Source: Carpediemonas membranifera BICM | Taxonomy: Eukaryota > Protista > Fornicata | Length of the DNA: 64,000 nucleotides | Direction of reading: 5' to 3' | Assembly (NCBI GenBank): GCA_019828565.1 | Contig: JAHDYR010000034.1 | Span: forward strand, 88,209 to 152,208 | In this document: positions 1,686-42,546 of the stretch, piece by piece | Layout: each line of letters opens with the position of its first letter | How positions within the stretch are numbered: position 1 is the stretch's first letter | Notes under the pieces: model-generated | What the model saw: only the letters and a program-made list of their open reading frames with translations | What the model was told of the DNA's origin: nothing | Database searches by the model: none | Made by a program: the position numbers and the translations under genes

Positions 1686-2100
1686 TCCTGTCACAGGACC
1701 ATCACTGGCACCTGCGCGCGCCGATCAATGTGCACTTTATGTCACACTTCGAAACGCATCGGCAGGTGTCTGCTTCGTGCTCGAAGTTAAGTGGCGCTAG
1801 GGAGCGCAGCTGGCAGGTTCCGGCGTGGGTCGGAAGCAACCGACCAGATTTTATTTAGGCTATGTATCCGTCCAAATTCGACACAATGATGTCGAGACGT
1901 CAGTGCTCATGAACGAGGCCGTGGCCGCGCGAGTCTACCACGCTCGGCGGACAACAACTCAGGCGGCGCAAGCCGTCGATATTTGCGGACGTGAGAATTT
2001 CACGGACAGTAAATATCCTTCCCCCATTGGTTTACACAGCGATGAGCTAGTGCGGATGTGTCAGACATCCGGGGTAGCCACCCGAGGTAAATACTCGCCC
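1686..2100 (+). repeat. Solo A-spacer remnant of the Y5 family, with a second A-B remnant nested inside and cut by G1
   Basis: 1686-1770 matches Y5 A2 (48877-48961) with one mismatch. 2069-2100 resembles the Y5 spacer (49024-49055). Internal GTAAAT..CCCCCATTGG B-like motif at ~2009-2050. Confidence 0.7.
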
Positions 2101-2660
2101 TGTGGTCTGAGCTCAAAGTCAAGTGCAGTTTATGTAAACGTTCATTGCCAACAGTAATTACTGAAGCTTAGAGCAATATGGGACGAAACGAGAACTCAGA
2201 AAAGAAGCCGATTCTTACGGAGTTTAGCTTTGAGGCTTTACAATCATGGATAAGAGATTTGGAGGCTTACAAGTTGGGAGGCGGAAGCGGATGGGCATTC
2301 AAGCTGGTTACGCAGGACATTCGCATGCAACTTAGATTGATCTCCACTACTTACACGCCTGAGGACTTCGCAATTCCGCGAGAAGACGCCGACGGCGTTG
2401 AACTCACGAAGCGCCAGCGTCGAAAACTGAAGAAGGCGCGGGACAAGAAGTGGGTCGATGCCTTGCTGGGAGCACTTCGCCCTACAGATGAGACTACCGT
2501 TCGCGCAGCTTTTAAGTCCCTGAAGGCAACTAGCGTTCAACCCCGGGACATCGCCGCGTACATCACCGAGTTTCAGCGTGTGCACGCCATCATGGGCGAC
2601 GCAACCACTAAGACTCTGAACCTTCGAGAGCTCTTCATCCAAGGCATCCCGGCCCCCAGC

Positions 2661-2787
2661 TGTCGTGGATCTTTAGATCCATGCATATATTTATTCCTGA
2701 TCTGATTACGATCTGGTCTTGATTTGTCTTTTATTTTTAAACACTTCGCATTGTTCGTTGTTGTTCTACCCCCGCGCGCCTACAACA
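2661..2787 (+). repeat. G2 5' LTR
   Basis: Identical to 7113-7239; TG...CA termini. Confidence 0.95.
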
Positions 2788-2799
2788 GTAATATTACTG

Positions 2800-5700
2800 A
2801 TGAACATTGAGCAACTAACGAATTATTTCGCCCCATACCTGTCGTCCACTAAGGCAAAGGGCTGGTACTCCTTCAGAGAAAGCTACTACCTTTACGCCGT
2901 TCGAGCACGCGATCCTGCGCCGATATACGAGTGCGTTGCACGCACTGTGCTTGAGACTTTCGCCCTTGAAAGTGAAGACGTTCGACGCTTGATGCGTTAC
3001 GTAGCCCTCCGACGCCAACGCCCTCAGGCCCAGCCTCGAGATCCACTTCTCTTTCTTCCGCCTCCGGCAGAAGAACAAGCTCTCGACGACGACAGCTCCA
3101 GTGATTCTTCATCCTCCGCCTCTTCCTCTTCCTCCTCCGAAGCTCCTGACCACGTCTCCATCGACTCTATCTTCTCCCACGAGTCCGACATGAACGATCC
3201 GACGATGCTTTACGCTTCAGCCCAGCATCTCAACAAGTTCTTTATTGACGCCGTCAACCGTATCTTCAAGCCCCGTGACAAGCAGAGTGCCCTCGATCGC
3301 TTCAACGATATAAGCTTTTCGAAGGGCCGCGAGCTATACGAGAACATGATGCACTACTGTCTGCTGTACCGCCGTACCCTGCAAAACTGCTGTGACGTTC
3401 GCCCCAAGGAGTCTCATCTGGTAACCAAATTCCTATCGAACATCAGCGACGCCCGTCTGCGCCAAAGGTGCAAGACCGAGGCCGACAAGCGCAGTCTGCG
3501 CAAGACGATGCAGCTCTCCCTCACACAGGCCAAGGGGCAGGAACGCGTTCGGTACGAGACCAAGGCAGAAGCTGAATTAAAAGATCAGCCCTGCCTTGAG
3601 TTGACTGAAGATTACCTGGACGCTATTGATGAAGCCCATTCGTGCACCGATGTGCGTGATCGACCAATCTACCCAATTCACCTTGGGGACCACAAGGTCA
3701 TGGCACTATACGACACTGGAGCCACCGCGAATTTCCTCAGCCTAGCCCTCGCGAAGTCAATCGGTGTCACGCTCAATCCAGAGCGCCATCGTATCAGGCT
3801 AGCCACCGGACAGATTGTTGTGTGCACCCATATCGCGCAACTCTCAGTCCACTTTCCCTCCGTGACAGGCCACGACCTGACAGCCGATATCAAGTTTATC
3901 ATCCTCCCAAACCTTGATTTCGACGCCGTCATTGGCTTCCCCACGTTACGGAACACAGGCCTTTTCGAGATCCCAGAGGTCTCCGACATCTCCATCCTGG
4001 ATGACGAGGAGGACATGGAACTGGACGCCATGGCGGAAGAACCCGATGAGCCGCGGATCGAACTATTTAGAGAAGAGATCCAAAGGCTACTGAAGAAGTA
4101 CGACGTCACCGGCGACATTTCGTCCCCATCTCTCCTAGATCCCTTCACCATACGCACCAAGGATGCCCAAGTCATCAACCGTTATCCATACAGATACTCC
4201 GACTCCGTGATGAAAGAGATTCATCGTCAAACAGACACCCTAGAGTCTCTACGAGTCCTGGAGCCGTCTGACTCCCCATACAACAACCCTATTGTCATGG
4301 CTGGCAAACGCAACGGTGAAGCCAGGATGTGTCTGGACTTTCGGGAGCTCAACAAGGTCACCCTGGACCTTATACATCCCCTACCATTGATCGATGACCT
4401 CGTGTCTCATCTCGAGGGCATGCAGTTTTTCGCTGCCTTGGACCTCACAAAAGCATTTCACCAGGTTGAGATTGACCCCCATTCTAGGCCTCTCACAGCT
4501 TTTACAGCTGGAAAGAAAAAGCTGCAATACTGCAGTATGCCCTTTGGGCTGAAAAACGCGCCTATTCACATGCAGCGGGCTCTTGAGAAGGCTATGGGCG
4601 GTGCACTCTACACTAAGTGCTTGGTCTACATCGATGATATAGTAGTTTTCGGCCGATCCAAAGAGGAATACCTCGCAAACCTTCAAGATGTGCTGTCTCG
4701 CCTTTCCAGGCATGGCCTGAAGCTCAATCTAGCGAAGTCTGTGTTCTCCGCCACGGAGATAGACTATCTGGGCTGGCGCATTGACGCACACGGTAAGCGG
4801 GTCTCCTCTGATCGCCTCGACGCCATTAAGGCCCTACGCCCCGCGACATCTCTCACTGGTCTCCGCGCCCTCATTGGTCTAGCTAACTACTTCCGCGCTC
4901 TCCTACCCGACTACGCAACGAGGATGGAACCCCTTATCTCACTCACGAGGGCATCCAAGTTTGACTGGGGACAGGAGCAGGACGCTGCCTTAACCTGGAT
5001 CAAGGACCGCCTCTTGAACGAGGAAGTCCTAGTCCACCCACGTCCCGGAGAGGCACTGCATTTATTTACAGACGCTTCTGACGTCGGGATAGGCGGTGTG
5101 CTGACCAACTCCGAGGGAAAACCCGTCGCATATTTTGCCAAGACTCTCTCGTCGACACAAAGACGATGGAGCACTATCGAGAAAGAGTGCTTCGCAATAT
5201 TCCACGGCATTACGAAGCTTAGGCGCTACCTAGCCGGCAGAGTGTTTGAAATCCACACGGACCACCGCAATTTGACTTACATGCACCACAGTATCAACGC
5301 GAAGGTCATGCGCTGGGCCATGGCACTCTCCGAGTACGACTACAGCATCAGCCACGTCGCTGGGGTCGATAACGGCGCTGCCGACGCTCTCTCTCGACTA
5401 TTCACTTTGGACGACGTCCCTGACGAACGTTTCACCACCTTCCAAGCTCACCACAATGGCTCAGTAGGCCATCTTGGCCGTGACGCCACCTGCCGGAAAA
5501 TCGCTCAAGCCGGTCTCTCATGGCCCGGCATGAAGTCCGACGTCCGTCGGTTCATTGGCGAATGCCCGGTTTGCCAGCTGGTGCGCTCTAAGCGATCCAC
5601 TATCCCGTCGGAACGCCACTCTCTCATGGGGAGCTATCCCTTTGAAGTGGTCCAGGCTGACTCGATCGGCCCCATGGACGTCCCCGGGTGCCACTCTTAC

Positions 5701-6657
5701 GGCCTTGTCGTGGTGGACACCTTCTCCCGTTTGACACAGGCTTATCCCACCACCGATACAACCTCATCCGAGGCTATCCGCGTCCTGTCGTCTTGGAGAC
5801 AACACTACGGCACCCCTGCCACTCTGATCACTGATGGAGCCTCGCAGTTCTGTTCTGAGGAGTTCAAGTCCTTCTGCAACCAGTCTAGCATTATTCACAA
5901 GGTCGGGACACCCTACCACCCAGCTGGGCAAGGATCCGTAGAAAGGCAGAATGAGGAGGTTAAGCGCCACCTGCGCGCATATCTCTTGGAGAATGATGGT
6001 ACGTGGGAGGAGGGTGTGAACCAAATCACATCAATTATCAACAACGCCCCTCTCAGCACGTCTCAGCTATCGCCGAACCAGGTTTTATTCGGGAAGGAAG
6101 TACCGATACCTGCAGGCTCTCTCTCCATGGAGCTCTTCTACTCCACACTCCAGGCTTTGAGGTCCGAACAGCTCAAAATGACCTCCCGGCAATCCCCCAC
6201 AGCAACGCACGCAGCGGAGCACCTCGTGGGTCAGGGCGTGATAGTTCGCAGGAACACTACCGGCCACGTGATCACACGCGGTCCTTGTCGGATCATCCGC
6301 AAGGCCGAGCGGCCGAATGTGTACATTGTTCGTGACTTCACGCTCAACAAGGACTTCGAAGCTCATGCTGACTCGCTAACTCACTTCAGGGGCACCTACA
6401 CCGACAAGGAGCTTGCCGACTGGGCCGCCCGTCACCAAGGTGAGTACCTAGTCCGGTCCATCCTTGCTCACCGGGTCCGAGCTGGACGGCTGCAACTGTC
6501 CGTCGCGTATGAGGGGTACGATGACGCCGACTCCACATGGAACGAGTTCGATAAGTCTATGGATCAGCTCGAGGCGTTCGAAGCGTACCTTGCCGCTCAC
6601 CCCAGGCTCAAGAAGAACTTAAGACGGTACAAGTGGTGGCTTAAGCCATCATCATAG
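2800..6657 (+). CDS. gag-pol: G2 Gag-Pol polyprotein (PR, RT, RNase H, integrase, chromodomain), intact, 1285 aa from ATG 2800
   Basis: YDTGA protease; MPFGL and YIDD RT; FTDASD..TDH..AADALS RNase H; HHCC and D,D(35)E integrase; C-terminal EYLVRSILAHR..YEGYDDADSTW chromodomain. Confidence 0.95.
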   Translation: MNIEQLTNYFAPYLSSTKAKGWYSFRESYYLYAVRARDPAPIYECVARTVLETFALESEDVRRLMRYVALRRQRPQAQPRDPLLFLPPPAEEQALDDDSSSDSSSSASSSSSSEAPDHVSIDSIFSHESDMNDPTMLYASAQHLNKFFIDAVNRIFKPRDKQSALDRFNDISFSKGRELYENMMHYCLLYRRTLQNCCDVRPKESHLVTKFLSNISDARLRQRCKTEADKRSLRKTMQLSLTQAKGQERVRYETKAEAELKDQPCLELTEDYLDAIDEAHSCTDVRDRPIYPIHLGDHKVMALYDTGATANFLSLALAKSIGVTLNPERHRIRLATGQIVVCTHIAQLSVHFPSVTGHDLTADIKFIILPNLDFDAVIGFPTLRNTGLFEIPEVSDISILDDEEDMELDAMAEEPDEPRIELFREEIQRLLKKYDVTGDISSPSLLDPFTIRTKDAQVINRYPYRYSDSVMKEIHRQTDTLESLRVLEPSDSPYNNPIVMAGKRNGEARMCLDFRELNKVTLDLIHPLPLIDDLVSHLEGMQFFAALDLTKAFHQVEIDPHSRPLTAFTAGKKKLQYCSMPFGLKNAPIHMQRALEKAMGGALYTKCLVYIDDIVVFGRSKEEYLANLQDVLSRLSRHGLKLNLAKSVFSATEIDYLGWRIDAHGKRVSSDRLDAIKALRPATSLTGLRALIGLANYFRALLPDYATRMEPLISLTRASKFDWGQEQDAALTWIKDRLLNEEVLVHPRPGEALHLFTDASDVGIGGVLTNSEGKPVAYFAKTLSSTQRRWSTIEKECFAIFHGITKLRRYLAGRVFEIHTDHRNLTYMHHSINAKVMRWAMALSEYDYSISHVAGVDNGAADALSRLFTLDDVPDERFTTFQAHHNGSVGHLGRDATCRKIAQAGLSWPGMKSDVRRFIGECPVCQLVRSKRSTIPSERHSLMGSYPFEVVQADSIGPMDVPGCHSYGLVVVDTFSRLTQAYPTTDTTSSEAIRVLSSWRQHYGTPATLITDGASQFCSEEFKSFCNQSSIIHKVGTPYHPAGQGSVERQNEEVKRHLRAYLLENDGTWEEGVNQITSIINNAPLSTSQLSPNQVLFGKEVPIPAGSLSMELFYSTLQALRSEQLKMTSRQSPTATHAAEHLVGQGVIVRRNTTGHVITRGPCRIIRKAERPNVYIVRDFTLNKDFEAHADSLTHFRGTYTDKELADWAARHQGEYLVRSILAHRVRAGRLQLSVAYEGYDDADSTWNEFDKSMDQLEAFEAYLAAHPRLKKNLRRYKWWLKPSS

Positions 6658-7112
6658 CCGCAACATGTCCATACTGCACGTAAATGGACCTCTGTTTCTT
6701 CGTTCTCTACCGCTTTCACCGCCACCATCCGAAAACTAACTAATTTGAACATAACTAAGTAACTGGTGGTGGATACCGCTTCTATACGGCTAACTACTTG
6801 ATATTGATTACTTATATGGCTCGTCGTTGAGATCTTAGGCGGCTACGAGCTCGAACGGAGGGAAGAAAGCGAAAATAGCGAGAACTCGCCATTGAGGCCT
6901 CGTTGGGCCTTCTAAGGGCCATTTTCTCGCTCTTGTTGGGATCGTGCTCATTCAACTGGCATTACTTCCAGCAATAGGAAAACTCGTTGGATGTCGTCAT
7001 CAATTGATTGCTGACGAGATTTTGATCCTGATTTCCCCTTTAGAGCATCCCGAGGGAGCAACTGGGCTCACCATAGCTCAGTGGCGCCCAATTACTGACC
7101 ATGGGAGGGAAG

Positions 7113-7239
7113 TGTCGTGGATCTTTAGATCCATGCATATATTTATTCCTGATCTGATTACGATCTGGTCTTGATTTGTCTTTTATTTTTAAACACTTCG
7201 CATTGTTCGTTGTTGTTCTACCCCCGCGCGCCTACAACA
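7113..7239 (+). repeat. G2 3' LTR
   Basis: Identical to 2661-2787; preceded by the PPT. Confidence 0.95.
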
Positions 7240-7820
7240 CCAGTCTCCGCTTCGAGGTCAAGGACAGGACCAAGGAGGACACCCCTCTGGCCGAGGTTCT
7301 CTCACTGGCGAACAAGGTCAGCAGGGATATGGTGCAAGACCTAGAGCGAGTTAAGACTTTCTTGCCCGACATAGGGTACAAGCTGGTCAAGACGACGGAC
7401 GAAGCCAGGACTCGCAAGGCCCCGCCGGTGGACCGCGCGGCCAAGCGTGACAACAGGACACATGAGCACGCGCCCAAGGACATCAAGTGCTTTAACTGTG
7501 GCGGCGGGCACCGGATGAGCGAGTGCCCTAAGCCCATTAGGCATTGCAAGAACTGTGGCATGTTCGGTCACACCGCAACCGAGTGCAGGAAGCCGAGTAA
7601 ATCGGCCACGTACATGTCACTGATTACGGATGGCGCCCACGGGCGACCTGAGGTGACGGCCCAGGTCGATAGCTACAGTCTGACTGCGCTGCTCGATTCT
7701 GGAGTAACCGTCAATTTCATCGATGAAGCGAAGACCTCACGACTGGGGGCGACGGTCGACCCGTCGGTACGCTTGAACGTTCGTCTGGGCGACGATAGGA
7801 TTGTCCAAACTCTCGGCTGA

Positions 7821-10320
7821 GTGCAGCTGACTGTCACGGTTCCCGGAGTCTTGAGCAAGGTCCAGGCCTCGCTCGAGTTCCACGTGCTGCCACATTTGCC
7901 TCGACCGTTGGTCATCGGTTTCCCGACCATGGCTGAGCTTGGATACCTGCGCCTCCCGACCGTGGACGCTGACGATACCGACGCGGTCGTCATGGTGGAC
8001 GACGATGAGGAGTGGGAATGGCTCACTCATATGGGGATCGTCGACGCTGACATAGGGACTATAGAGATTGAGCTGAAAGATCGCGATTGGATCAACAATC
8101 AGCAGCCAAGGCGGAGGTCTGCAGCGGCAGAGGACGGCCTGCGAGAAGAGGTCAGGCGACTACTAGAAGAAGGAGTCATCGAAGAGAGCGACTCACCCCA
8201 CAACAACCCAGTGGTGATGGCACACAAGCGGGGTGGAGAGTGGAGGCTGTGCATAGACTTCCGCAAATTGAATAAGAATACGGTGCCGATCAAGCACACA
8301 ATGCCTAGAATTAGTGACCTGATCGGCAGCCTCGAGGGCTGCTCGTGGTTCGCGACTCTCGACATGAGGTGGGCCTTCCATCAGGTGGACCTGGACCCGG
8401 CAGCACGCGAGCTGACTGCATTTACGGCAGGAGGCAAGCGCTACCAGTACGCGAGAATGCCGTTCGGGTTAACGAACGCGGCTGCGGTGATGCAGCGCAA
8501 CCTTGAGCGACTGCTGGGCGGCCTGGTTAACACGGCATGCCTGGTATATATAGACGACGTGGTCGTCTTCGGCAAAACCGAACAGCAGTACCGTGAGAAC
8601 CTTAGACTGGTGCGCGAGAAGCTCGACAGCGCTCGCGTAGTACTCAACGAGAAGAAGTGCGCGTACGACTTACACGAGATTGATTACCTGGGCTGGCTAG
8701 TCTCCGGAGAAGGAAAGCGCATCAGCCCAGACCGCCTAGCGCCCGTCCGGAACCTTCGTGCCCCACGGGGGAAGGAGGACATCCCGACCCTGACCGGGTT
8801 GACGAACTACTTCCGTGACATGATCCCGCGCTACGCGGAGATGATGGAGCCTATACTTGTCCTCACACGGAAAGACGTTGAGTTTAACTGGACACGCGAG
8901 TGCGACGAGGCTCTGACGCAGGTGAAGCAGCGACTCACCAGCGACGAGTGCTACTTGGCACACCTTGATCCCGACAAGACGATTCATCTCTTCACCGACG
9001 CATCCAACGTCGGAGTAGGAGGTGTCATGGGCCAGTACGACCAGCAAGGCCGTTTCAGACCCGCTTATTTCTTCAGCAAGACGCTGACCGCGGTAGAGAG
9101 ACGTTGGTCGACATATGAACAAGAGGCCTACGGCATCATATACTGCGTGAAGAAGGCTGGAGGACTGTTAGCCGGCGAGCATTTTATCATACATACAGAT
9201 CACAGGAACCTGTGCTACATCGCTGATGCGGTGAACCCCAAGGTGCTCAGGTGGCGACTCATGCTCAAAGAACACCGCTTCACAGTGGTCCACGTTCCTG
9301 GAGCAAGCAACGGAGTCGCCGACGCCCTGTCCAGGCTGGTCCCCACCGAGAGCCTGACCGTCCTCGACCATTCAGTGGATGAGTTCGGTCGCCAGTTCAA
9401 CATGGTCCACGGCGGGACCAACGGCCACCGGGGAATATATGAGACGACAAAGGCCCTCAGAGAACTGGAGTTTGACACTCACCGGACAGTGGGTCACACC
9501 CCGTTCGAAGTGGTACAGTTGGACACGATCGGACCACTGCCGTTGGTGGATGGGATGCGTCATATAATTGTCGTAGTTGAAACGTTTAGCAAACTGGTCA
9601 ACTTGTTTCCCTCACCGTCCACTGACGCTGCGAGCGCAGCTAGCGCGATACTGGACTGGGCCAGCAGATACGGTCGCCCAAGAATGATTCAGACCGACAA
9701 CGCGACACAGTTCAGAAACGCAGTCATCGCAGAACTGACGAGTCAGCTGAGCATTGGCCAGAGGTTCTCGACACCATATCATCCTGCTGGAAACGGAATA
9801 GTCGAGAGAGTTAACGGTGAGATTATGAGGCACATCCGAGCGCTGATGGCCGACTGCGGACCGAACACGACATGGCTGAGTACCGTGCGGGACGTACAGT
9901 ACATCGTCAATTCAGCGGCGTTTTCGCGGTCAGGACTAACCCCGTTCGACGTTCTATTCCCACGGAGCGACAGGGCGGATGAACCTACCCCTGGCGGCCT
10001 CATCTCGTTCAGGAGAGCCGTGGAGGTGAGCAGAGCAATACAAGAAGAGGCGCTCGCCCGCACGGAGGGGAAGGGAGACATCGAGGACGACCTCGAGCCG
10101 GGTAGCTACGTGCTCCTGGAACGGGTGGAGCGGGTCGCTAAGCTTCAGGACAAGCTTCGCGGGCCCATGCTGCTTGTAGAGCGCGCCGAGCACCCCAACA
10201 CGTACGTGGTACGAGATGTGAACACCCAGAAGGAAATGGTCGTGCACGCAGAACGCCTCAGAAAGTTCGTGACGACTGCCCCTCTGGCCGAGATCGAGGC
10301 CATGGCCGGCGATGAGAGGG
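7821..10320 (+). pseudogene. pol: G1 pol (RT, RNase H, integrase), damaged
   Basis: YIDD RT, FTDASN RNase H, QLDTIG..TDN..VER integrase. The CxxC half of the integrase zinc finger is deleted in frame, and beyond ~10320 the ORF reads into antisense G3. Confidence 0.9.
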
Positions 10321-11724
10321 TGAGCTCCGCGGCCTCAATTGGGCGGCCGGGGACGGTCTTCTGGCAGACTGGGCAGGACTTGATCAGGTCGGCGACATGC
10401 TGGCGCTGGTTGGCCCACGAATGGCCGTGGTCGCGAAGGGACTTGACTGTGCGGTTCGTAGAGAGGTGACAGCCCGCGGCCTTGTGGTGTCGGAGGATGA
10501 GTGTTGTCCGATCGTCACCGTCAATGGTGAAGAGGCGCGAGAGACCATCAGCGGCCCCATTGTCAACACCAGCGACGTGCTTGATACTATAGGCGAACTG
10601 CTCCATGAGCAGTCTCCACCTGCCGACCTTGGCGTTGGTGGAACGATGGAGATGAACCAGGTTGTTGTGATCAGTGAGGATTTCAAATGGGCTCCACCGG
10701 AGGTAGCGCTCGGCCTTCTTGAGGCAGTGGATTATACCGAAGCACTCCTTCTCAATTGTGGGCCACCTCTGTTTCACTCTGTCAAGGGCCTTAGACATGT
10801 AAAGAAGAGGTTGTCCGTCTTGTAGGAGCACGCCCCCGACTCCGACATCTGATGCATCTGTGATTAAGGTCAGCTTCTTACGTGGGTCGAAGTGTACTAG
10901 GGTAGGGGCTGACGTCATCCTAGATTGTATGGTCTTGAAGGCTACGTCGCACTCATCGGTCCAAATGAAGGGACGACTGTTCATGGCGTCGTACAGAGGC
11001 TTTGACACGTCGGCGAAGTCAGCGCCAAGGTAATCGTGGAAGAAGTTAACGAGTCCTAGGAACTGTCTTGTACTTGACGTTGTCTGGGGTCTCGTCATGC
11101 GCGTAATAGCCGAGACTCTGTCTGGGTCGATCTGCTTGCCGTCTTTCGTGATTAGCCAACCGAGGTACTCAAACTGCTCGAGAACAAACTGGGATTTGTC
11201 GAGATTGAGGCGGATGCCCTTTTCCTCACATCTGGTAAGGACCAAGTCAAGATTTTGAGCTAACTGGTCCGGGGTACTGCCGAAGATGACGACATCATCC
11301 TGGTATATGAGGCACTTCTCGTACAGGAGGTCTCCAAACGCGACTTCCATAGCGTACTGGAAGTGAGCACCAGCTTGCTTAAGGCCAAATGGCATCCGTC
11401 TATATCTGTAACGGCCCACGTGCGTGACAAACGTCGTAAGGTCCATCGAAGTTTCATCAGCGAGTGGTATTTGGTGGTAGCCACTGGCCATGTCGATTGT
11501 CGCGAAATATCTCCCCTTCGCGAGGAAGTCGATCGTTTCATCGATCCTAGGTAGGGGGTAGTCAAATTCTTCCGTGACGGTGTTAATCTTCTGATAGTTC
11601 ACGCACATTCTGGTCTTCTGCGTGTTCTTTTTGGCGGTGAGCACCACGGGTGACCCCCATGGGCTCTGTGACGGTTCGATAACCCCTAGGCCTTTCAGCT
11701 TTTCGACGTGGGACTTGATCTCCT
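10321..11724 (-). pseudogene. pol: G3 RT-RNase H-integrase zinc finger (truncated)
   Basis: MPFGL, YQDD, ITDASD, HH..H..CPVCQ, then a break. Out of frame with gag-PR at ~11730. Confidence 0.9.
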
Positions 11725-13161
11725 CTAGCTTCCATTGACCGGGTAGGGGCGTTGTGATGTGGAGTGAACCCCTTGTTTCAGTTTGAGGGAGAAAGGAGAG
11801 AGAGTGGATGGTTCTTGGGTGAGGTCTCCGAAGGCAGCGGCGTGTTTGTCGATAACTTCCTTGTACGGAGCCTCAATCTGAGTGTTGACCGAGCTGCAGG
11901 CGTAGCTCCTGTCTAACTGCTGTTCTTCGTCAGTGAGTTCGTTGCTGGGCTCATCCGAGGCCATCAGTCTCAGGAGACCAAGGCTCTTCATGGTGGGGAA
12001 CCCGATAATGATGTCAAAGGGCATGTCTGGGAGGACATGAGCCTCTATAGTAGTGGAGAGATCGTACCTGTTGAGCTCGTTGGCCTTGATCGTCAGTGGA
12101 ACTGTTGTAAACCCCTTGGATATCGTTTCTTTGCCATTAGCGAAACTAACAATGAGGGGATCGATCTGTATATTGGTAGCAAGCTCCTCTTTGATGTAGT
12201 TTGTGGAGGCACCTGTATCGAGTAGAATTCTGACAATAGCATGTTCAAGGAGACCGTCGCATCCAAGAACTTCGCCTGGGGAGGACTCTCTGATCACGTT
12301 AAGGAAAGCATACTTGAGGGGATTTACAGGCCCCTGGTTCAGCTTCTTGCGGCAATCAACTTCGAGGTGTCCAAGGCGTGAGCAGTAGTTACACTTGGGG
12401 ATGCCCTTTTTCTTGGCGAAGCATATGTCCTCGGAGTGACCATGCTTGCCGCAGTATGAGCAGTTGAGGTTAGATGGTTTCGGGGGTTCTCGGCGGCCTT
12501 CCTTCGTCGTTCTCTTGTCATCGGGTTTGAGTGGAGGTCGCTTTGTTTCGTGGAGAGCTGATGGGGGAGCTGGGCGGAAGAATGGAGTAGCGATCTTAAG
12601 GGCTTCTTCGACGTTCCGAGCGTGGTCCAATGTGACCTTGTAGAGGTCGTCGATAGTGAGGTTGTGAGTCATTGAGGTTAGCTGTTGCTTGAAGATCTTG
12701 TCTTCAAAGCCGTTGATGAAGGACTCACGCACGTAGTCAATACCGACGGAGGATGGGAGAACGATTGTCGAGATGAGCTTGTGTTGATTGATGTACTGAG
12801 CGACCTGGCCGGGCTTTCGGCCAGGAGCCTTACGAATGAACACTTGGGACATGGTGAACGGGTCAGTGGGGCGGACGAACTTCGTCAAGGCATCTCGGAC
12901 ATGCTTGTCGATGTGATCATTCTCCTTTCTCGTCTTGTCTTTCCTTGACAGCGTCTCGTCGTTGATGACAAGCTCGGTGACGTCAGAGAGTCTGAATGGC
13001 GTCTCTTGTGCCTCGAGCTCGAGGTAAACCGGAGAGGATATGAGTTCGTGCAGCGGGGAACGCTTCTTGCCAGTTCTCAAGCTGTAATCGTCATACGACG
13101 ATAGGAATTTGAGCAGAGACTGGAATGTCAGGATTTTCAGGAGAGGCGTATTCTCGTTCAT
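11725..13161 (-). CDS. gag: G3 Gag-protease
   Basis: Two CCHC knuckles (CSYCGKHGHSEDIC, CNYCSRLGHLEVDC) and LLDTGA protease. Confidence 0.9.
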   Translation of the reverse strand: MNENTPLLKILTFQSLLKFLSSYDDYSLRTGKKRSPLHELISSPVYLELEAQETPFRLSDVTELVINDETLSRKDKTRKENDHIDKHVRDALTKFVRPTDPFTMSQVFIRKAPGRKPGQVAQYINQHKLISTIVLPSSVGIDYVRESFINGFEDKIFKQQLTSMTHNLTIDDLYKVTLDHARNVEEALKIATPFFRPAPPSALHETKRPPLKPDDKRTTKEGRREPPKPSNLNCSYCGKHGHSEDICFAKKKGIPKCNYCSRLGHLEVDCRKKLNQGPVNPLKYAFLNVIRESSPGEVLGCDGLLEHAIVRILLDTGASTNYIKEELATNIQIDPLIVSFANGKETISKGFTTVPLTIKANELNRYDLSTTIEAHVLPDMPFDIIIGFPTMKSLGLLRLMASDEPSNELTDEEQQLDRSYACSSVNTQIEAPYKEVIDKHAAAFGDLTQEPSTLSPFSLKLKQGVHSTSQRPYPVNGS

Positions 13162-13468
13162 TAAGGGCCAGTAATTACTGATGCCTAAGCCGGGCTAAGC
13201 GAGAATGAATTTATGAGTAAACCTTCTGTGGTGAATATGGTCAGTATTATATCTATACTGATAGCTATAAGCTACACTGGTCGGACGCAACCTGCGAACT
13301 GTTTCTCGACTTGTTCAACACGTCCCAGACCAAACCCCCCCGTGCCATCTCCTACTGCGCAGCCAAAGCCAGAGCCAAGGGTAAGAGAAAGGACCAGCCC
13401 CAGAACAAAGGGGGGTTTCACAAGAAGCACAAGAAGTAGCCCTTGCCACAGATGTTCAGTTCCCGTCA

Positions 13469-15562
13469 ATGAACAAAAAGTGGCCGGTGTGGGCAAGACT
13501 CGGTGCCTCCCCCGAGGTAGTAAGCTGGCTGCGGGATGGCGTCCCTATCCACCTCACCTCTGCGCCCCCTCCACCAGAACCGCAAAGGCGAGTGGACCCC
13601 CGCCTACTCCCGAAGATCGAAGAGCTAGTCGCCAAGGGCGTCCTCTCCCCGTGCCCGATAGACGAACTGCGTCACAGCGCACCCCTGTTCGCGGTGTCGA
13701 AGGGCAAAGACGATGTCCGCCCCGTGCACGACCTCCGAGCCCTGAACGAGGTGACAGCAGAGCTGAGGGTGTTTCGTCTGTTCGGCATCAGACGGGCGGT
13801 CCGCAATCTGCACAAGAACGACTATATGATCAAGATAGACCTGGCATCGGGATACCACCAACTTGGCGTCGCCTCGCGGGACTCCCCCCTCCTAGGCGTG
13901 GTCCTACCGGACGGCCGTGCATTCAGGTACAACACACTCGGCTTCGGATGGACAGCGGCGCCGTACGTGTTCCAGAGCACGACCATACAGCTTGCAAAGA
14001 TCATCGCACACAGGTTCGGAGTGACCATCGCGGTCTATCTCGACGACTTCTTAGTGTCCCATGCCTCCCCATCGTACCTAGCTTCGGTCACCCCGCAGAT
14101 CATCGACCTCATGCTATCGCTGGGGGCGATACCGGGCCTCAACAAGTGCGTCCTCACGCCGACCCAGCAGGTAGACTACCTAGGTGTCCACATAGACACC
14201 GCAAGCGAGTCCCTAAGAATCTCAAAAGACAAGGCCGAGTCCTACACGGCCACGATCGCCGAGGCCCTCCGGGTCGGGTCCATCACAGCCTCAGACTGGC
14301 AGAAGCTCCTAGGCCGTCTGTCATTCTTCGCAGGGACCACACAGTTCGCCCGCCTCGCACTCAGACCACTGCAGGCCACCCCTACAACGGAGACCGTCCA
14401 CCTCTCCAGCCAGATCCGCAGGCAGCTGGCGGCGTGGCAAGTCCTCCTCCGCGATCGCCCACCCAAGAGGTTCGCCGAAGCAAGAGCTGACTGGGAAATA
14501 CGCGATACGCTCCAGATTTCTGTCACCTCAGACGCATCAACGTCCGGCTGGGGAGCATGCCTGTTCAACGGAGAGAAGGGAGCGGCATCACAGGGTGCCT
14601 TCCCCCCTCATCTCAAGGGGGAACACATTGGTGTCAAGGAGCTCTTCGCGATCGCTCAGGCGATCAAGCTCGTGCCCCAGCAGGAGACACGCTCCTCTCT
14701 CACAGTCTTTGCCGACAACTCAGCTGCCATCAGCTGGGTAAACAGACGGGGATCGCCGAACCTCCCCCCAGCCGCACACCAAATCCTACAGGACATCTAC
14801 AACACGGCAGAAACCAAGCGCCTCGACGTCCACTGCTTCCATATTGCCGGACACCTGAACGTCCAGGCGGACAGGCTCTCCAGGTTCGCCAAGCTCGACT
14901 GGTCGTCACCCCGAGAAGTCTTGGAAACCATCATGCGCAAGTGGGGGCCGGTCGAGATCGACGTCACAGCACGCCCCGACAAGGTTCTGGCCTTACCAGG
15001 CTTTGCAGAAATAGCCTGGTCAATCCACGACAACGGCTTCCAGAGGTACTGGAGGGGAGTCAGGATATATCTAGCTCCTCCTATAGCCCTTTTTGGAGTA
15101 ACGTGTCGTCGCCTCCAGACAATACGCGCCTCTACCCAGACTGGGAACCCTCGACACTGGAGATCAGCGGCGATAGTCCTGTGCCCGGACCTCAACTCGC
15201 CCGAGGTTCGAGCCATCAAACGTTTGACACCCCTCAAGATGTACCTCAGAGTCCAGGCGAAACACCTCCTGCAGTCCGAGCTAGCCTGGACAGCGACAGA
15301 CAAGGGCAAGATCCGCTTCGTGGAGCTTATCCTGAGGACCCGTTCCAAGCCCTCCTCGCTGACGACCGACTATCACATTTCAGAAACGAATCGTCGCGCC
15401 GCACAGCAGCGGGGTCGCCAAATTCCTCCAATCCCGCAACGCGAGCCACTCACACGCGCAACAGCTCAAAGAGTTCCTTCTGACCGAGGGTACCACGTCG
15501 GGCCCACAGTCGATACACAGGAAAGGCTACTGGATTTGCGAGGCCGCCCCACTCGTGTCTGA
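13469..15562 (+). CDS. Y1 RT-RNase H-degenerate methyltransferase
   Basis: IDLASGYHQ, LGFGW, YLDD; TSDAS..KEL..ADN..ADRLSR; WGPVEIDV..W..YLAPP. Confidence 0.9.
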   Translation: MNKKWPVWARLGASPEVVSWLRDGVPIHLTSAPPPPEPQRRVDPRLLPKIEELVAKGVLSPCPIDELRHSAPLFAVSKGKDDVRPVHDLRALNEVTAELRVFRLFGIRRAVRNLHKNDYMIKIDLASGYHQLGVASRDSPLLGVVLPDGRAFRYNTLGFGWTAAPYVFQSTTIQLAKIIAHRFGVTIAVYLDDFLVSHASPSYLASVTPQIIDLMLSLGAIPGLNKCVLTPTQQVDYLGVHIDTASESLRISKDKAESYTATIAEALRVGSITASDWQKLLGRLSFFAGTTQFARLALRPLQATPTTETVHLSSQIRRQLAAWQVLLRDRPPKRFAEARADWEIRDTLQISVTSDASTSGWGACLFNGEKGAASQGAFPPHLKGEHIGVKELFAIAQAIKLVPQQETRSSLTVFADNSAAISWVNRRGSPNLPPAAHQILQDIYNTAETKRLDVHCFHIAGHLNVQADRLSRFAKLDWSSPREVLETIMRKWGPVEIDVTARPDKVLALPGFAEIAWSIHDNGFQRYWRGVRIYLAPPIALFGVTCRRLQTIRASTQTGNPRHWRSAAIVLCPDLNSPEVRAIKRLTPLKMYLRVQAKHLLQSELAWTATDKGKIRFVELILRTRSKPSSLTTDYHISETNRRAAQQRGRQIPPIPQREPLTRATAQRVPSDRGYHVGPTVDTQERLLDLRGRPTRV

Positions 15563-16241
15563 CTGACGCCTCCCGACCGCTGCCAAGCAGATAATCGCCG
15601 CCGCCCGGAACGTCGCCTCTGTAGAAGGCCTGACCGGGGGCGCGAAGCCTGTCACGTCCGCGAGAGTCCGCAGGGTCATATACAGACGTCGGAAGTCACC
15701 CCAAGCCTTCCAAGCCGCCCTCTTTTCTGCTCTCTGCTTTATCACCGTGAGTAGAGGCGCAGAGATCTTTGGGCTCAGACGAAGAGACGTCGAGTTCGAC
15801 GCTGACGGCAATGCCCTCCTTTGGTTCGTGAGAACTAAGACTGCCACAGGCGTCCGCAAGCTGGTACCAAACCAATCGTGGGCCAGCTTTAACCCAGCAA
15901 GGGCCCTGAAGGCATGGGTCCCCACGGCAACGCGCCGCGACGACGACGTCATCTGGCGGGCGATCACCTCAACCGGGGGTATTTCACTATCGAAGCCGCT
16001 ACCGGCGTCAACCCTCCGCCACTGGATCCACCAGGCGTACGGCACCGACTTTTCGTGGCACTCATTCCGCAAGGGCGCCACCACGGAGTTGGCGGTAGCC
16101 CACACGAGTACCGAAGTCCTCCTGTCCATGGGGACGTGGGCCTCCACGAAAAGCATGCTGAGATATATGGGCAACGGGGTCCGCACACACCCGGGGGTCC
16201 AGGGACACCTGGCCTCCATCCTTCTCCAACCACCACTTTAA
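15330..16241 (+). pseudogene. Y1 tyrosine recombinase (frameshift near 15410, TGA near 15564)
   Basis: SRGAE, RTKT, HSFRKG, GTW and LRY catalytic motifs; C-terminus nearly identical in protein sequence to the Y3 YR. Confidence 0.85.
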
Positions 16242-16563: not shown

Positions 16564-19500
16564 TGAAGTCTGGAAACAAGTGTGAAGTGTTTAAGGGGTA
16601 TACCTCCTACGCGGTGATAATGGCTCTAACTGCGTCTACATAGTCATGTAAATACCACACTACCCCTCCTCCATCAGAGCCATGCTTCTATTTCCGACTC
16701 TGACCGACTTTGCGCAAATGCTCGTCAACGCACTTTGCAAGTTGGCTATGGTCCTCCATGTACTTCAATAACACGATGTTGGACCGCATGTCTTCGTCTG
16801 TTGCCACTCTCCAGGTGTCTTCGCTGGCTTCGAATCCCAGCCACCTGCACCTCACTTCCGGTGTCCTGTTGGCGTCTCTTCTAATCCTCCAGTCCACTAT
16901 CTTCTTGATATACGCCTGGCTTCTATCTAAGGCGCATGCTACTTTGGCCTTCTCTTCGCTCCACTCTCCCTCGGCGACTTTCAGGTGAGAAACGTGCTTC
17001 TGATACGTCTTCTTCGTCTCTGGGTCTCGCACAACGTACGAGTTCGCCTTCCCGGGGACCTTCCTGACCACCATCAACGGTCCGCGCCACTTGAGGTCGT
17101 ACTTCTTGCGAATCTCCGCGTCGCGATCCACGAAGACCCAGTAACCCGCTGCCACGCGCGACTCAGGGTGCTGCCGCTGAATGTCAGCCGCTCGCTTCTG
17201 GCTGTCCTGCTTCTTCTTCGCCGCTGTCTGCTCCATATTCCTTCTTCTATTTTCTTCGTTCTGGATCATCCTGCGCGCAGCCTCCACCTCCTCCATCCTC
17301 TGTTCCTTGAGCTTGTCCACGGTCGCTCTGGTTCCATCCGCCACTACCAGTCTCCACGCCGACGACCCGGTCGCCCTCGAACGCGCCGAGTTGATGATGT
17401 TCTGGATCGACGGGAGCAGACCCTTCCATCTCCTGGTCTGCCGTTCATACATCTCGCACCGCAGGTGGCGGTTGACCTCTTTGTTCCACCGCTCGACCAC
17501 GCCGTTCTCCTCGTGGTAGTACGGCGTCGTGTGGTTGACCCGCGCCCCGGTCTCCCTGGCCCACGCGTGAAACTCGGTCGATGCGAACTGCGACCCGTTA
17601 TCTGCTACCCACTCGACCGGCATCGGGAAGTGGGTGAGGTAGAACCTCTGCAATGCCTCGATGGTTTCTCGTGACGACACTGTCTTCAGCGGGACCAGGG
17701 TGACCCATCGCGACGTTTCTTCCACAACTGTCAGGATGTTCCGGTACTCGCCGTCGGCCTCTTTCATGACGATAGTGTCCACGAACACTCGACCATACGG
17801 TCCCAGCGGCTCGCGCGGCGCTCGACTGGTACGGGTCGCCCCCCATACCCGACTTCTGGCACACGGGGCATCGTTTGACCATCGTTGACACGTCAGCTTC
17901 GGCTCCGTCCCAAGACAGTCCGATGTCCTCAAGCTTCCACAGGGTCTGTTGCACCCCATGGTGGCCCTTCCCAGCGCCGTGTACCTCCTTGAACCTCGCT
18001 TCCTTCTGACTCTCCGGCAGTGTCGGGCTCGCCTCCTGTGTCGTCCTGAACTCGTCTACTCTGAACAGCAGTTGCCCCTGCGGTCTGGGCTTGCTCTCTT
18101 CTGTCTCAGCGCCGGCTGCCGCTGGGCCATCCTCGTCTGACTCCGTCCGACTCTGGTCCGGAATGTCCTCCTGCTCCTGCTTCGCCTGCTCCTCTGCGAG
18201 CGCCGCCCTCGATAGCCCGTCGGCGATCTCGTTAAGGCTGCCCGGCACGTGCCCCACGTCGAATTTGTAGTTGGCGAGCTCGAGTGCCCACCGCTGCACC
18301 ATGTCGTCATTGGCGCCCCACACGTACGCGAGGTTCCTGTGGTCACACCACACCTTGAACTCCTGCGTTGCCAGCAGACGCCGAGCCTTGCGGATCGCGT
18401 GGACAATGGCGAATGCCTCCTTCCTATACGTGCTCCACCTGCGCTGCGAGCCGGACAGTGCCTTCGACAAGAACATAATCGGCCGCTTGCCGCCCTCGTC
18501 CTCCTGCATCAGCACCGCGCCGACCCCCTTGTCCGACGCGTCCGTGTACAGCGCGAGTCTCTTCGCCGGGTCCGGGTGTGTCAGCACCGGCGCGCTCGTG
18601 ACCGCCTTCTTCAATGCCTCGAGCCGCCCTGTCCTGGTCCGGCCCCCACGGCGGCGCGTCCTTGAGCTCCATCCTCCTGATCGGCTCGGCCAGGTCCGCG
18701 TACCCCGGGATGAACTTCGCGAAGAAGTTGAAGATACCCAGGAGGGCCCTGACATCGCTGACGTTGTGCGCCGGGGCGAGCTTCTGTACACCCTCCACCC
18801 TCCACTCAGGCACGGACCGTCCCTCCTTCGACACAGTCCAGCCCAAGTACTCTACCTCGTCAAGGTTGAAAGCGCACTTCTTCTCGTTAAGCTTGATCTT
18901 CCGCTCCCTCACCCGGTCCATGACATGCCGGAGGTTGGCCTCGTACTCCTCCACCGTCTCCCCGAACACCAGGATGTCGTCAACGTAGATGAGGCAGGCC
19001 GTCCCCAACATGTCCGCGAACGCCTCCTCCAGCGCTGCCTGCATATGGCCCGCCGCCGTCGACAACCCGAACGGCATCGTGTTATAGGTGAAGTGGCCGT
19101 CGGGTGTGGTGAACGCCAACAGCTCCTGCGTCCCCTCCTCGACCGGCACCTGGTGGAACGCGCTGCTCGCGTCCAGGGCTGCGAACTTGACCTTGCCCTC
19201 CAGCATCGTCATGATGTCGTCGATGGCCGGGAGGTCGTGCTGGGGATCCTCGATGAACTTGTTCAAGCGGATATAGTTGATGCACGGGCGCCACTCCCCA
19301 CCCTTCTTCTTCGCCATGACCACGCGCGACGACCAGGGCGACTTCGACCTACGGATGATCTTCGCCTCTTCCAGTTTCTTGAGGTGCTCCGACAGTGCCT
19401 GCTCAATCTCCGGCTGCCGCCTCCTCGGCAATTCGAAGTAGGGCACCGCATCATCACTCAGACTGATCTTGTACGGCTTCAGGTCTGCCGCGCCGTCGGC

Positions 19501-20886
19501 CGGGCCGAAGCAATCGGCATACTCCTCGCGGATCTGCTCGTCCATCGTGGCCAGCAACTCCTCATCGCCGTCGACGTCGGTCGTGGTGGCCTCCACGTTG
19601 ATCAGGCCCAGCTCGGCAAGGGTCCTGAAGCAGATTGTGGGTTTGCAGCCAGCGATCACGTCCCAGTGGAGCGTGACGTCGACGTCTTTCTTCAATGCGA
19701 GTCTGACCTTCTTCGATCCTCCCGTCAGCACTCTCGCCGTCGAGTTGTCGCCCAGCTTGACCCACCGGTCGGCCCACTTCGTCCGGATGCCCCACTCTCT
19801 GGCCAACTCCGGCGGGATGAAATTGCTGCTAGCACAAGTATCGAGCCGCACCACATGCTCCTTCAGCCCGACACTCATGCTGCACTCCCAAACCTTGCTT
19901 TCCACCCCCGAGGCAAAGACTAAACACTGATCGGGTTTACTGGCGTCCGGACAGTCCTTCGCGACGTGCCCCACCTTACCACACCGATAACAGCGACGGG
20001 TGCCTCCGGCTATCGTCGGCTCTGGGCAGTCCTTGGCCATGTGGCCCCCACCCCCGCAGTTATAGCAGTGCAACTTCTTCTGCCCCTGCTCTTGCTTCTG
20101 CACGTCTTTCTTCGATGTAGACGATGTGGGGGCTCCAACAGCCCAAACTGCTTCATTGCCTCGCGCTTCTTCCTCTCCCACAGCATTACTGATTGCATGA
20201 CTCCGGCTGAGTCAGTGCATGCGTCAACGACGCCCTGGAGTATTGCGTGTTGTCCTTCGTGCTTGCACGCCTCCAAGATCAGCCTCTTCGTTGCATCTAT
20301 CGGGATGTCCTCTATCTTCTGGAACAACACCGCCGCTCTCGCTGAAATCCTGTTGAGCACTTCGCTTACGCTCTTCTCAGGTCCATTCGTCAAAAGCTGC
20401 GTCCGTGCGAACACTTCAGTGGGTAGGACGAGCTCTTCTATGCTCTTCTTCCAAAATGCGTCCTCCTTCTTCTGGTGTGCGCGTCGTGCCTTCTTGACGT
20501 CGTCTTGATGCTTCATGTACTGCTGAGTCGACACCGATCCGTTACCGTTCGTCGCACATGTCGGCTCCACGAACTCGTCGATCCTGGACTTCCCTGTCTC
20601 GCGTAAAACCTGTCTCTTCAACGCAGGCTTGACCAGGGAGTGAAAAGGCTTACGGTGCTTGCCGTCGTCTGCCTCCAGGCTGTACTCGTCGTAGATGTCT
20701 CGTACTCGCATATACTCTTCGATCGTGAGGTCCTTCATCGGTGGACCTATCGTTACGTCTTCTCCCATTGCGTCAAACCGTAGTAATTACTGAAGTCTGG
20801 AAACAAGTGTGAAGTGTTTAAGGGGTATACCTCCTACGCGGTGATAATGGCTCTAACTGCGTCTACATAGTCATGTAAATACCACA
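16564..20886 (-). mobile_element. Full-length chromovirus-like Ty3/Gypsy element G4
   Basis: Identical 96-bp LTRs (16564-16659, 20791-20886), 5-bp TSD TGCCC (16559-16563, 20887-20891), PPT at 16660-16672 on the minus strand. Confidence 0.95.
16688..20768 (-). CDS. gag-pol: G4 Gag-Pol read in four frame-shifted pieces (20010-20768, 18424-20181, 17598-18791, 16688-17959)
   Basis: CCHC knuckles, RLDTCA protease, YVDD RT, YTDASD RNase H, HHCC plus DTI..ADN..VER integrase, RWLGFEASEDTW chromodomain. Frame breaks lie near G/C runs. Confidence 0.85.
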
Positions 20887-21610
20887 TGCCCGAAGGAGCC
20901 CGAGAAGAATAAATCCTTTACCCCCCCCTTTGGGAGTATGAGTTAGGTGGCTAGCCGTGGACCACATGGGTCACAGTTGACACCCGGGAGTGTCGGGTCG
21001 TGCTGCCTGATCCGATTCGATCGGATTCGATGGGCGCGCAAATTTCAAGGATCGTCTCGATCCTCTTCAGAAGAACGAGAATGGCTGATCCGGCCGAAGA
21101 AAACGAGCCGGTCACCCAGAAGGACCTCCAAGAACTGAGAGAAGTTGTAGAACGCGCCCTTCAGGCCAGAAGTGCTGAAGAACAGCAGATAACCCCGATG
21201 ATATCGCCCTCAACGTAGAGGATAACGATGATCAGCAGCTTCAGGACCAAGAAAGCATCGAAGACGAACAGCAGGACGCTGTCGACGACATCTTTGATCC
21301 CTTTGAGGCTCTTGTGAACCTTCCTAACCGGTTCGGCCTTCGAGATGAGGCTAAGTGGCTTTACGCCATGGAACGTGATCTCATCGCTGGCCGCCTTGCA
21401 ACCATTCCTGCTCTGAGGGTCAAGATCTACGGACGCCAGCAACTCCTCCTCCTCAAGGACAGTTGGGACGACGCAACCTCCGAGCGCTGCTCCAACCTCT
21501 TCAAGTCCGCTCCTCCCCGCACTCGGGCCGCCGTCGACATCTTGGTGGCTAAGGCTAAGATCAAGGGCATCAAGAAGCGTGACAATTTTCGCGAAAGGGG
21601 GGGCAGAAGG

Positions 21611-37699: not shown

Positions 37700-38015
37700 C
37701 GCTGCGCTCCTAATCATTCCAAACAATCTTTAAACGCGTTCGTCGAAGCGAAATGGTTTCGCTGGCGCCTTGATCCGCTCCCGCTATAACAATGCGAGGT
37801 TATTGTAGTGTGAGAGTAGCGGTAGTAGTGTGTCCTCTGGGTGAGTGGTTCCCTCTGGGTTGGTGATTATATGTTAGTTGGCCATGTTATTGGCGCTACA
37901 TCGTCAGTAAGGTTACCTCGGGTAACGGGCCCGGAGCGGAGGGCGATGTGATAGCCTCACTCCGGGCAAAAGGTGTTTCGCCGGTCAGGCGAGTCACGCA
38001 GTTTATGCGGACAGA

Positions 38016-38569
38016 ATGGCGCAAGGTTCGGATCCGCCGGATCCGACGGCAACACGCTTAGATAAGCTAGAAGCTTCAATCAATTCCATGTCCGAAGCCC
38101 TGAACAGGCTTGCTCCTCCGCCTCCGCCAGAGAAAGAACCTGACGACGAAATGCTCGAAAGTTCCACCGTTGCTAGGTTCAATACCTCCGAATCGTTGGA
38201 GGAGGACACGATGGAGGACATAGATGCAACTCTGGCAGAGATGGACACCTTCTCGGAGTTACCAAGCAAGAGACCTCTCAAGGCAGAAGCGAAGTGGCTT
38301 CAACGCGTTGTCGTGATCACTAGTGCTCTCCCAGATTCCGCGACGAAACAACGTCTTCTTCTCGAACTACAGGCTCGTAGAATGGTCCTAGACCTCAAAG
38401 ATGATAACTGGTCCGATGCCACGACCGAGCTGTTTCAGGACCTCTTCAACAGCACAGAAAGCAAGAGCAGCCGCACCATCGCTTACTGCGCAGCGAAGGC
38501 CCGCTCTAAGGGCAGGCGTAAGGACACCAACGGTAACATGGGGGGTTTCACAAGAAGAAGAGAACATAA
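38016..38569 (+). CDS. Y3 gag-like ORF1 (end inferred by restoring one G in the run at ~38540)
   Basis: LP..R.L..EA.W..L.LKD.W.D...AKA..KG pattern shared by the ORF1s; the Y1 homolog ends GGFHKKHKK*. Confidence 0.75.
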
Positions 38570-41372: not shown

Positions 41373-41944
41373 ATCACGACGGGAGTCGTGGGGCAGTGAC
41401 GATTAGCACGGTACCGACATTCTTGGACGCGAACCCACGAGGGGTTGGTCGGGGGGCCCACTTGCGTGCCTGTGGGCCAACCATTGTTAGCACGTTGCCG
41501 GCGGGATATCCCCGTTGGTTAATGAAAAGAATGTCATGAGGCTAGGATAGCTAGCTGGCGCTACATCGTCAGTAAGGTTACCTCGGGTAACGGGCCCGGA
41601 GCGGAGGGCGATGTGATAGCCTCACTCCGGGCAAAAGGTGTTTCGCCGGTCAGGCGAGTCACGCAGTTTATGCGGACAGAATGGCGCAAGGTTCGGATCC
41701 GCCGGATCCGACGGCACGGTACCAGTTACGACTGGTATACTCCTTCTCCCTCGGTAAGCGGAGAGGACTTCACGTTTAACTTACACTAGCTTCCTCGTTA
41801 ACATTGTGTAAATTAAGCGCCCCCCCGTTGGTTAATGAAAAGAATGTCATGAGGCTAGGATAGCTAGCATGGCGAGTACCACTCGAGCCCATTGGCACCC
41901 GGGGTGCTGAGACGCCCGAGAGGGCGCACGGAAACGTGCAGTTT

Positions 41945-42517: not shown

Positions 42518-42546
42518 TATTCCCATCAACCCGTTCGCGATGGCGG

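Follow-up and report, generated by a model that had tools for sequence, protein, structure and literature searches.

A palindrome in the primer-binding position of a Ty3/Gypsy clade, and a possible role in priming by paired genomic RNAs

How does an LTR retrotransposon begin reverse transcription when the position of its primer-binding site (PBS) is taken by a palindrome? LTR elements depend on host tRNA at the priming step, and tRNA fragments can block it. Three priming routes are distinguished in the available text of Neumann 2019, using a mature tRNA, a half tRNA or a self-primer from the 5′ LTR, with 10 nt of LTR complementarity as the criterion for self-priming (PMC6317226). The 64-kb stretch of Carpediemonas membranifera DNA analyzed here (the window) contains four Gypsy elements, G1 to G4, in each of which a perfect palindrome begins at the last A of the LTR and TGG is absent. 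An earlier note on this DNA had reported these four motifs in the PBS position, and all four are there. The features, in window coordinates, are:

2057..2153 (start 2057 or 2059), + strand: G1 5′ LTR, TG...CA; the partner LTR is lost, and the end is placed from the CA and position only
2152..2163, + strand: G1 palindrome CA-GTAATTAC-TG, 12 bp, 8-nt core at 2154-2161
2178..2660, + strand: 5′ part of G1 gag, interrupted by G2; the frame resumes at 7240
2661..2787, + strand: G2 5′ LTR, 127 nt, same as the 3′ LTR
2786..2799, + strand: G2 palindrome CA-GTAATATTAC-TG, 14 bp, 10-nt core at 2788-2797; ATG at 2800
2800..6657, + strand: G2 gag-pol as a single open frame; Pfam places protease, RT, RNase H, integrase and, weakly, a chromodomain in it
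7113..7239, + strand: G2 3′ LTR, polypurine tract ahead
7240..10320, + strand: remaining G1 gag, with zinc knuckles, followed by pol; the protease is interrupted by a stop codon at 7818-7820; 3′ truncated at G3
10320..13161, - strand: G3 gag-protease (13161-11725) and pol, truncated past the integrase zinc finger
13169..13180, - strand: G3 palindrome CA-GTAATTAC-TG, 12 bp
13179..13276, - strand: G3 5′ LTR, 98 nt; end set at 13179, where contigs diverge
16564..16659, - strand: G4 3′ LTR, polypurine tract ahead
16688..20768, - strand: G4 gag-pol, split over four overlapping frames, with a weak chromodomain match at its end
20782..20791, - strand: G4 palindrome A-GTAATTAC-T, 10 bp
20791..20886, - strand: G4 5′ LTR, 96 nt, same as the 3′ LTR; target duplication GGGCA

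G2 is a full-length, 4.6-kb Ty3/Gypsy element nested in the gag of G1, with identical LTRs, a polypurine tract 5′ of the 3′ LTR, and a 5-bp target duplication, CCAGC/CCAGT, that carries one mismatch. The protein closest to that of G2 is 99% identical and annotated as Carpediemonas membranifera. The two G4 LTRs (20886-20791 and 16659-16564) are likewise identical, and the coding region between them is broken. Both elements thus show the Ty3/Gypsy features of paired LTRs, polypurine tract and 5-bp duplication, and the Pfam domain order of protease, RT, RNase H and integrase is the Ty3/Gypsy arrangement. Pfam Chromo matches G2 (E 5e-5) and G4 (E 2.3e-4) under its curated cut-off, and precomputed PF00385 matches are present on several proteins of the same clade. 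RNase H acidic motifs, read by eye, are found in all four elements. G1 and G3 both lack their 3′ ends and are joined tail to tail at about 10310-10330; with the 3′ parts gone, each long frame continues into the antisense strand of the other. From the LTR end to the first ATG, the leaders measure 24, 12, 17 and 22 nt in G1 to G4, matching the range of 12-24 nt given previously.

The position of the LTR end matters for what follows. For G3, whose 3′ LTR is gone, two public runs of a single sample contain contigs that depart from the reference exactly at 13179, which sets the LTR end independently. Contigs from another G3 copy carry 11 differences, none of them listed within the motif, and no differences are listed for contigs aligned to G4. 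A G3-family contig runs from the LTR interior (13206) through the motif into gag; such contigs cannot give a transcription start site. The public runs, four sets with small shares, consist of contigs only and stop short of the G1 and G2 junctions. One contig of run X2 (13179-13235) crosses from unique flanking sequence into the G3 LTR on the antisense strand and ends in poly(A) at 13235, which suggests a host transcript ending inside a G3 LTR elsewhere.

Chance accounts poorly for the palindromes. The pattern GTAAN{0,4}TTAC is found 9 times in the window, where 0.80 would be expected, perfect palindromes of at least 10 bp occur at 0.0011 per position, and a palindrome of equal length anchored at CA or TA, anywhere in the LTR plus leader, arises in 0.3-3.3% of 300 shuffles for G1-G4. 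The palindrome of G4 is the shortest case, at only 10 bp, with TA rather than TG after the core. All four elements share the half-sites GTAAT/ATTAC, spaced in G2 unlike in the other three. The cores of G1, G3 and G4 are identical, though none of these elements is another's nearest relative, and their sites could form duplexes across the three elements in addition to self-pairing.

The RT domains of G1-G4 are 37-49% identical. This agrees with the earlier description of four different Gypsy families, and not with treating them as independent cases, because RT and RT-RNase H trees cluster all four with unnamed environmental elements. They are four families of one RT clade, so that their palindromes are not independent and probably represent one inherited trait rather than four origins. 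Clade support varies with the outgroups chosen: FastTree gives 0.95 (49 rows, RT), 0.46-0.83 with added rows and 0.91-0.97 with RNase H; IQ-TREE gives 57.5/87 without the relative L007 and 53.4/78 with it; and SH-aLRT is 99 for 21 clade rows including L007 with broader outgroups. The clade is distinct from elements of Lolium, Haematococcus, Dendrobium and Dorcoceras, which we take to be plant and algal chromoviruses, in a tree built without a named Tf1/sushi reference.

Relatives were drawn from 245 loci, the metagenome scan among them covering 21 of 64 parts with the best 80 of 556 kept. Seventeen loci fall inside the clade, and 15 of these have a 5′ junction (L035 and L089 lack the 5′ end). 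Among these relatives the observation of the earlier note is borne out: a palindrome of the form A-core-T stands at the LTR end in 14 of the 15, or in 18 of 19 elements when G1-G4 are included. In the exception, L007, TA is followed by a palindromic core of 10 nt that lacks the outer A..T pair, and the LTR end is provisional. Most relatives' LTR ends were placed by eye with the palindrome already known; those of L088 and L091 (LTR pairs) and of L090, L086 and L146 (7-bp terminal inverted repeats) are independent of it. When a palindrome was allowed anywhere in the LTR plus leader, shuffling matched the observed one in 0-4% of cases for ten relatives and in 8-24% for four AT-rich ones, which are weak if taken singly (shuffle fraction 0.08-0.24). 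In L116, the frame downstream of the site is without a match to the clade gag. Outside the clade, none of 44 LTR pairs (24 distinct site sequences) has a palindrome of at least 10 bp at this position, and 38 of the 44 have TGG; kept out of this control were L092, for which the automated LTR caller chose a non-LTR repeat, and L024, L119 and L158, for which no end was found. Scans of viral contigs returned mostly caulimovirus-like or unrelated elements, with L001, L007 and L229 the only clade members. Sixty-one Gypsy loci of eukaryotic type (L023-L083) come from assemblies labelled bacterial or archaeal and probably represent host contamination; they contain no in-clade junction, L035 belonging to the clade but lacking its 5′ end. 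The hosts named for the clade are Carpediemonas and Aduncisulcus (P0021), and a homologue search among proteins longer than 2486 aa gave no host-named members.

What is conserved across these elements is symmetry rather than sequence. The 18 palindromes span 10-18 bp, with the centre 4, 5 or, once, 8 nt past the LTR end, and cores of 8, 10 or 16 nt, 10 nt being the length in 13 of 18. Twelve distinct cores occur, including GTAATATTAC, shared by G2 and L084, and also GTATTAATAC, GTGTATACAC, GAATCGATTC, AAGAATTCTT, GTTATATAAC, ATAAATTTAT and ATAATTAT. Nine of the distinct cores are 10 nt long, and at every one of their five pair positions two or three Watson-Crick combinations occur, without a single mismatch. 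In all 18 elements the middle four bases, too, form a palindrome (AATT, ATAT, TTAA, TCGA or TATA), something a hairpin loop would have no use for, and only the outer A..T pair is constant throughout. We conclude that the palindrome is real and under selection in a Gypsy clade that apparently has no name yet. Two details read earlier as significant lose that standing against this background. The 2-nt insertion in G2, cited for keeping the symmetry, amounts to one AT duplication, which preserves symmetry in a single step and is thus not special; since L084 and L087, the closest relatives of G1 and G3 respectively, also have 10-nt cores, a loss in G1, G3 and G4 is at least as likely, and on this comparison of cores G2 probably contains no insertion. 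The supposed mimicry of an LTR-LTR circle junction fares no better, as the palindrome extends to CA..TG in 5 of 18 elements, about the level of chance.

The site can be compared with the known routes one by one. TGG, the mark of a 3′-tRNA site, is found near the LTR end in none of the 18 clade elements. The thought that the element's own 5′ end might be complementary to the site was not borne out, the longest complement in the LTR measuring 4-5 nt in G1-G4 and no more than 7 nt in the 14 relatives, against the 10 nt or more used for Tf1/sushi elements (PMC6317226, available text). Ordinary Tf1-type self-priming by the transcript 5′ end therefore has next to no chance of being the answer, unless transcripts acquire a non-templated 5′ end, even with the putative chromodomains of G2 and G4 recalling Tf1/sushi elements. 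Priming by a host RNA, whether a tRNA fragment or another small RNA, with the palindrome incidental, would have a precedent in the anticodon-arm (half-tRNA) primers described for Copia elements such as copia, Ty5 and Bianca and for fungal Helenus elements (PMC6317226, PMC10886601, as far as their available texts go), and a loose tRNA-Ile(AAT) loop pattern fits 3 of the 14 relatives. The anticodon-arm pattern fits none of G1-G4, however, and the one host tRNA compared, the tRNA-Tyr that is the only Rfam match in the window, pairs with the sites over at most 3 nt. Such a primer would also have to serve G2 and the G1, G3 and G4 sites, which have just 5 nt in common in register from the LTR end, and it gives no reason for the two arms to change in concert; we judge it very improbable. 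Pairing of the site elsewhere in the element was considered and set aside: 7 nt near the G2 polypurine tract and 8 nt in the 3′ region of L084 are possible, at positions that are not conserved across nine elements, and no pairing of at least 7 nt between site and other element parts exists in G1, G3 or G4. The G2 stretch in question is AATTACTG at 7091-7098, directly 5′ of the polypurine tract, where a 7-nt pairing with the primer site is possible; it is not conserved in G4. Priming in this clade is likely to be independent of tRNA.

The end of a primer has to fall at the LTR boundary, and the one constant partner of the site is the site itself, which would make it a self-pairing one. The best single model, in our view, is that the palindrome is primer site and primer at once: two genomic RNAs packaged together would pair there, and one would be cut to prime the other. 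Reading from sequence comparison, we hold the chances of this to be evenly balanced. Here, two genomic RNAs in the particle would form an antiparallel, head-to-head duplex over A-core-T. One strand would then be cleaved 3′ of the core, before the T, probably by the element's RNase H, or else a short transcript ending there would take its place. The 5′ fragment (R-U5-CA-core-OH) would remain paired over 9-12 bp with its 3′ end facing the CA of its partner, so that RT could extend it over the partner's CA, U5 and R into minus-strand DNA. Plus-strand DNA would then copy the core from the primer, and at second-strand transfer the DNA ends would anneal only if the core is self-complementary, its centre included. 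In the DNA of the site, one strand would derive from the primer and its complement from the template, and any single change would therefore produce two mismatches; repaired separately, these could give a symmetric double change within one cycle, which would account for fast covariation of the arms.

Several observations are consistent with this dimer model. The predicted self-duplex of the 18 elements has a free energy of -7.8 to -18.8 kcal/mol, versus 0 to -3.7 for the hairpin, and marginal hairpins together with a centre that is palindromic in every element make pairing between two RNAs the more likely form. A cut after the core would leave 10 bp in G1, 12 in G2, 11 in G3 and 9 in G4, near the 11-nt length of the Tf1 primer. 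The RNase H of Tf1 reportedly cuts an RNA duplex, according to the title of Levin 1996 as cited in PMC4600332 and bioRxiv 2022.12.06.519325, which makes that of the element the likely cutter. The short leaders of G1-G4 offer scant room for another site. Other observations count against the model. The duplex is short and AU-rich, with the primer-template at -8.2 kcal/mol in G4 and the self-duplex at -7.8 in three relatives; over-copying of the primer might have extended the palindrome into U5, and there is no such excess; the core shared by G1, G3 and G4, which are not nearest kin, could also be explained by a host factor; and L007 goes without the outer pair. The earlier suggestion of a tRNA-independent, two-RNA route thus stands as far as the missing TGG, the missing Tf1-type complement and the self-complementarity kept while letters change, and its cleavage and priming steps keep the conditional form given above.

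How well do other functions of a palindrome explain the same data? If it were a dimerization or packaging signal alone, like the retroviral dimerization initiation site (DIS), with priming by another route, all signs of two-RNA pairing would fit equally; the DIS comparison is made for GalEa by Donnart 2017 (PMC5445492), and Ty3 is described as dimerizing through a palindrome via its tRNA (PMC5371799). In the available text of the former, however, a DIS sits in a loop and is additional to the PBS, while the site here is fixed to the last base of the LTR in 18 of 18 elements, where the 3′ end of a primer must sit, and no other primer site is present. We regard a pure dimerization role as unlikely. 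In a different reading, the 5′ fragment of the cut RNA folds back as a small hairpin and primes its own U5-R, which requires the same position and a self-complementary core; a 5-bp stem is possible in G2 (-3.7 kcal/mol) and L084 (-3.3 kcal/mol). After the cut, though, 10-nt cores would keep a stem of about 3 bp and 8-nt cores one of 2 bp, hairpin prediction gives energies weaker than -1 kcal/mol for 11 of 18 elements, and the would-be loop is palindromic in all 18, although second-strand transfer alone could enforce this last property. Fold-back priming seems to us quite improbable. We doubt to a similar degree that the palindrome works at the DNA level by binding a dimeric protein of the host or the element, in a promoter near the short leader or in end processing. 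Palindromes are typical sites of dimeric DNA-binding proteins, and such a site would suit three families in one host with one core and half-sites common to all four; the different half-site spacing of G2 and the 12 cores within the clade speak against it, and it would still leave the primer site missing.

The closest parallel to the palindromic site is a published one that the earlier reading missed. The fungal Ty1/Copia element GalEa has a Conserved Hairpin Site made up of CHSeq1, a 9-mer that is palindromic with the final A of the LTR, and CHSeq2, a complementary 9-mer; the site was proposed as a stand-in for the PBS, with no model fitted and the mechanism left open in the available text (Donnart 2017, PMC5445492). 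Like G1, G3 and G4, GalEa is described without a tRNA PBS and with a palindrome that includes the final A of the LTR in A-N8-T geometry, and its A-CTAATTAG-T or A-CTGATCAG-T differs from the A-GTAATTAC-T of these elements in only the two outer core bases. A palindrome of the CHSeq1 type is found in all 18 clade elements. In contrast, CHSeq2, which in the GalEa account lies 12-41 bp downstream, has no counterpart in the Gypsy clade: a second 9-mer of this kind shows 3-4 mismatches in G1-G4, and one mismatch in 1 of 18 elements, in AT-rich DNA. The clade cores are also mostly 10 nt and more variable than those given for GalEa. Because GalEa is a Copia element and G1-G4, with integrase after RNase H, are Gypsy, the likeness is most likely convergent.

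Other systems share parts of this arrangement. Tf1, Tf2 and Tj1 and the Tf1/sushi (Tcn1) chromoviruses are, like the clade, Gypsy elements with a site abutting the CA of the LTR, and they have a chromodomain and no tRNA primer, as is likely for the clade too (PMC4600332, bioRxiv 2022.12.06.519325, PMC6317226; available texts). The Tf1 primer duplex of about 11 bp, formed by the element's own RNA, resembles that of our model; in Tf1, however, the transcript 5′ end is described as pairing in cis with a non-palindromic PBS (PMC4600332), while in the clade the LTR lacks a complement and the site could pair only with itself. Skipper of dictyostelids resembles G1-G4 as a protist Gypsy element that has neither TGG nor an LTR complement, its chromodomain has a putative counterpart in G2 and G4, and novel priming was suggested for it; it differs in having a polypyrimidine stretch, and the available part of the paper mentions no palindrome (Spaller 2016, PMC5006619). 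The retroviral DIS and the tRNA-mediated dimerization of Ty3 illustrate that a short palindrome can join two genomic RNAs, but there it is extra to the tRNA PBS, in a loop or on the tRNA (PMC5371799, as available), whereas in the clade it takes the PBS position. Bivalve TRIMs lack a clear PBS and contain inverted repeats or palindromes in their inner domain, which were likened to GalEa; unlike the clade, they are non-autonomous and of variable structure, and are not described in the available text as tied to the last base of the LTR (PMC6934838). In the open-access literature searched, we found no report of a palindromic primer site in a Gypsy element.

The broader reading, in which a widespread Gypsy clade uses a fourth priming route by sacrificing one genomic RNA as primer for its twin and GalEa has converged on the same solution, is tentative, and we place it just short of an even chance. 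Such a route would add to the mature tRNA, half tRNA and 5′ self-primer of Neumann 2019 (PMC6317226). If it exists, the clade would be free of dependence on host tRNA, and the packaging of two genomes would be tied directly to the start of reverse transcription. Given the possible cross-pairing of the G1, G3 and G4 sites, families packaged together could act as primers for one another and hand the site on, and this would be how distant families of one host come to share a core. The unexplained GalEa site would become testable, as G2 combines identical LTRs with a single open frame, and symmetric variants of the site occur naturally. PBS finders that seek tRNA or Tf1-type matches would class such elements as PBS-less.

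The surroundings of G1-G4 are themselves rich in retroelements. The window (1-64000) is a dense nest with at least seven RT frames beyond the four Gypsy elements, several accompanied by tyrosine-recombinase frames of DIRS/Ngaro-like type (for example 13385-16241, 42460-45281, 45457-48664 and 56897-59875). The RT frame at 38392-40746 has a faint Dam adenine-methyltransferase match (E 0.045), and Carpediemonas DAM proteins are mentioned in the available text of work on DAM-bearing retrotransposons (bioRxiv 2026.05.21.726589). A DIRS-like direct repeat of 161 nt contains CAGTAAGGTTAC (37905-37916 and 41570-41581), which has the Gypsy arms around a non-palindromic centre, probably by chance, and a single GTAATTAC lies at 45389, close to the end of another DIRS-like element. 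Ends of different DIRS-like units have in common 85-nt repeats (1686-1770, 45487-45571 and 48877-48961) and a 32-nt repeat (20925-20956 and 45427-45458). At 49213-56293, a 3.4-kb RT/recombinase unit stands in tandem at 99.8% identity and adjoins the tRNA-Tyr gene (49137-49211). Near this tRNA gene, 31 nt of the G1 LTR (2070-2100) recur at 49025-49055 with 94% identity, adjoined by a 57-nt duplication (48820-48876 and 49058-49114).
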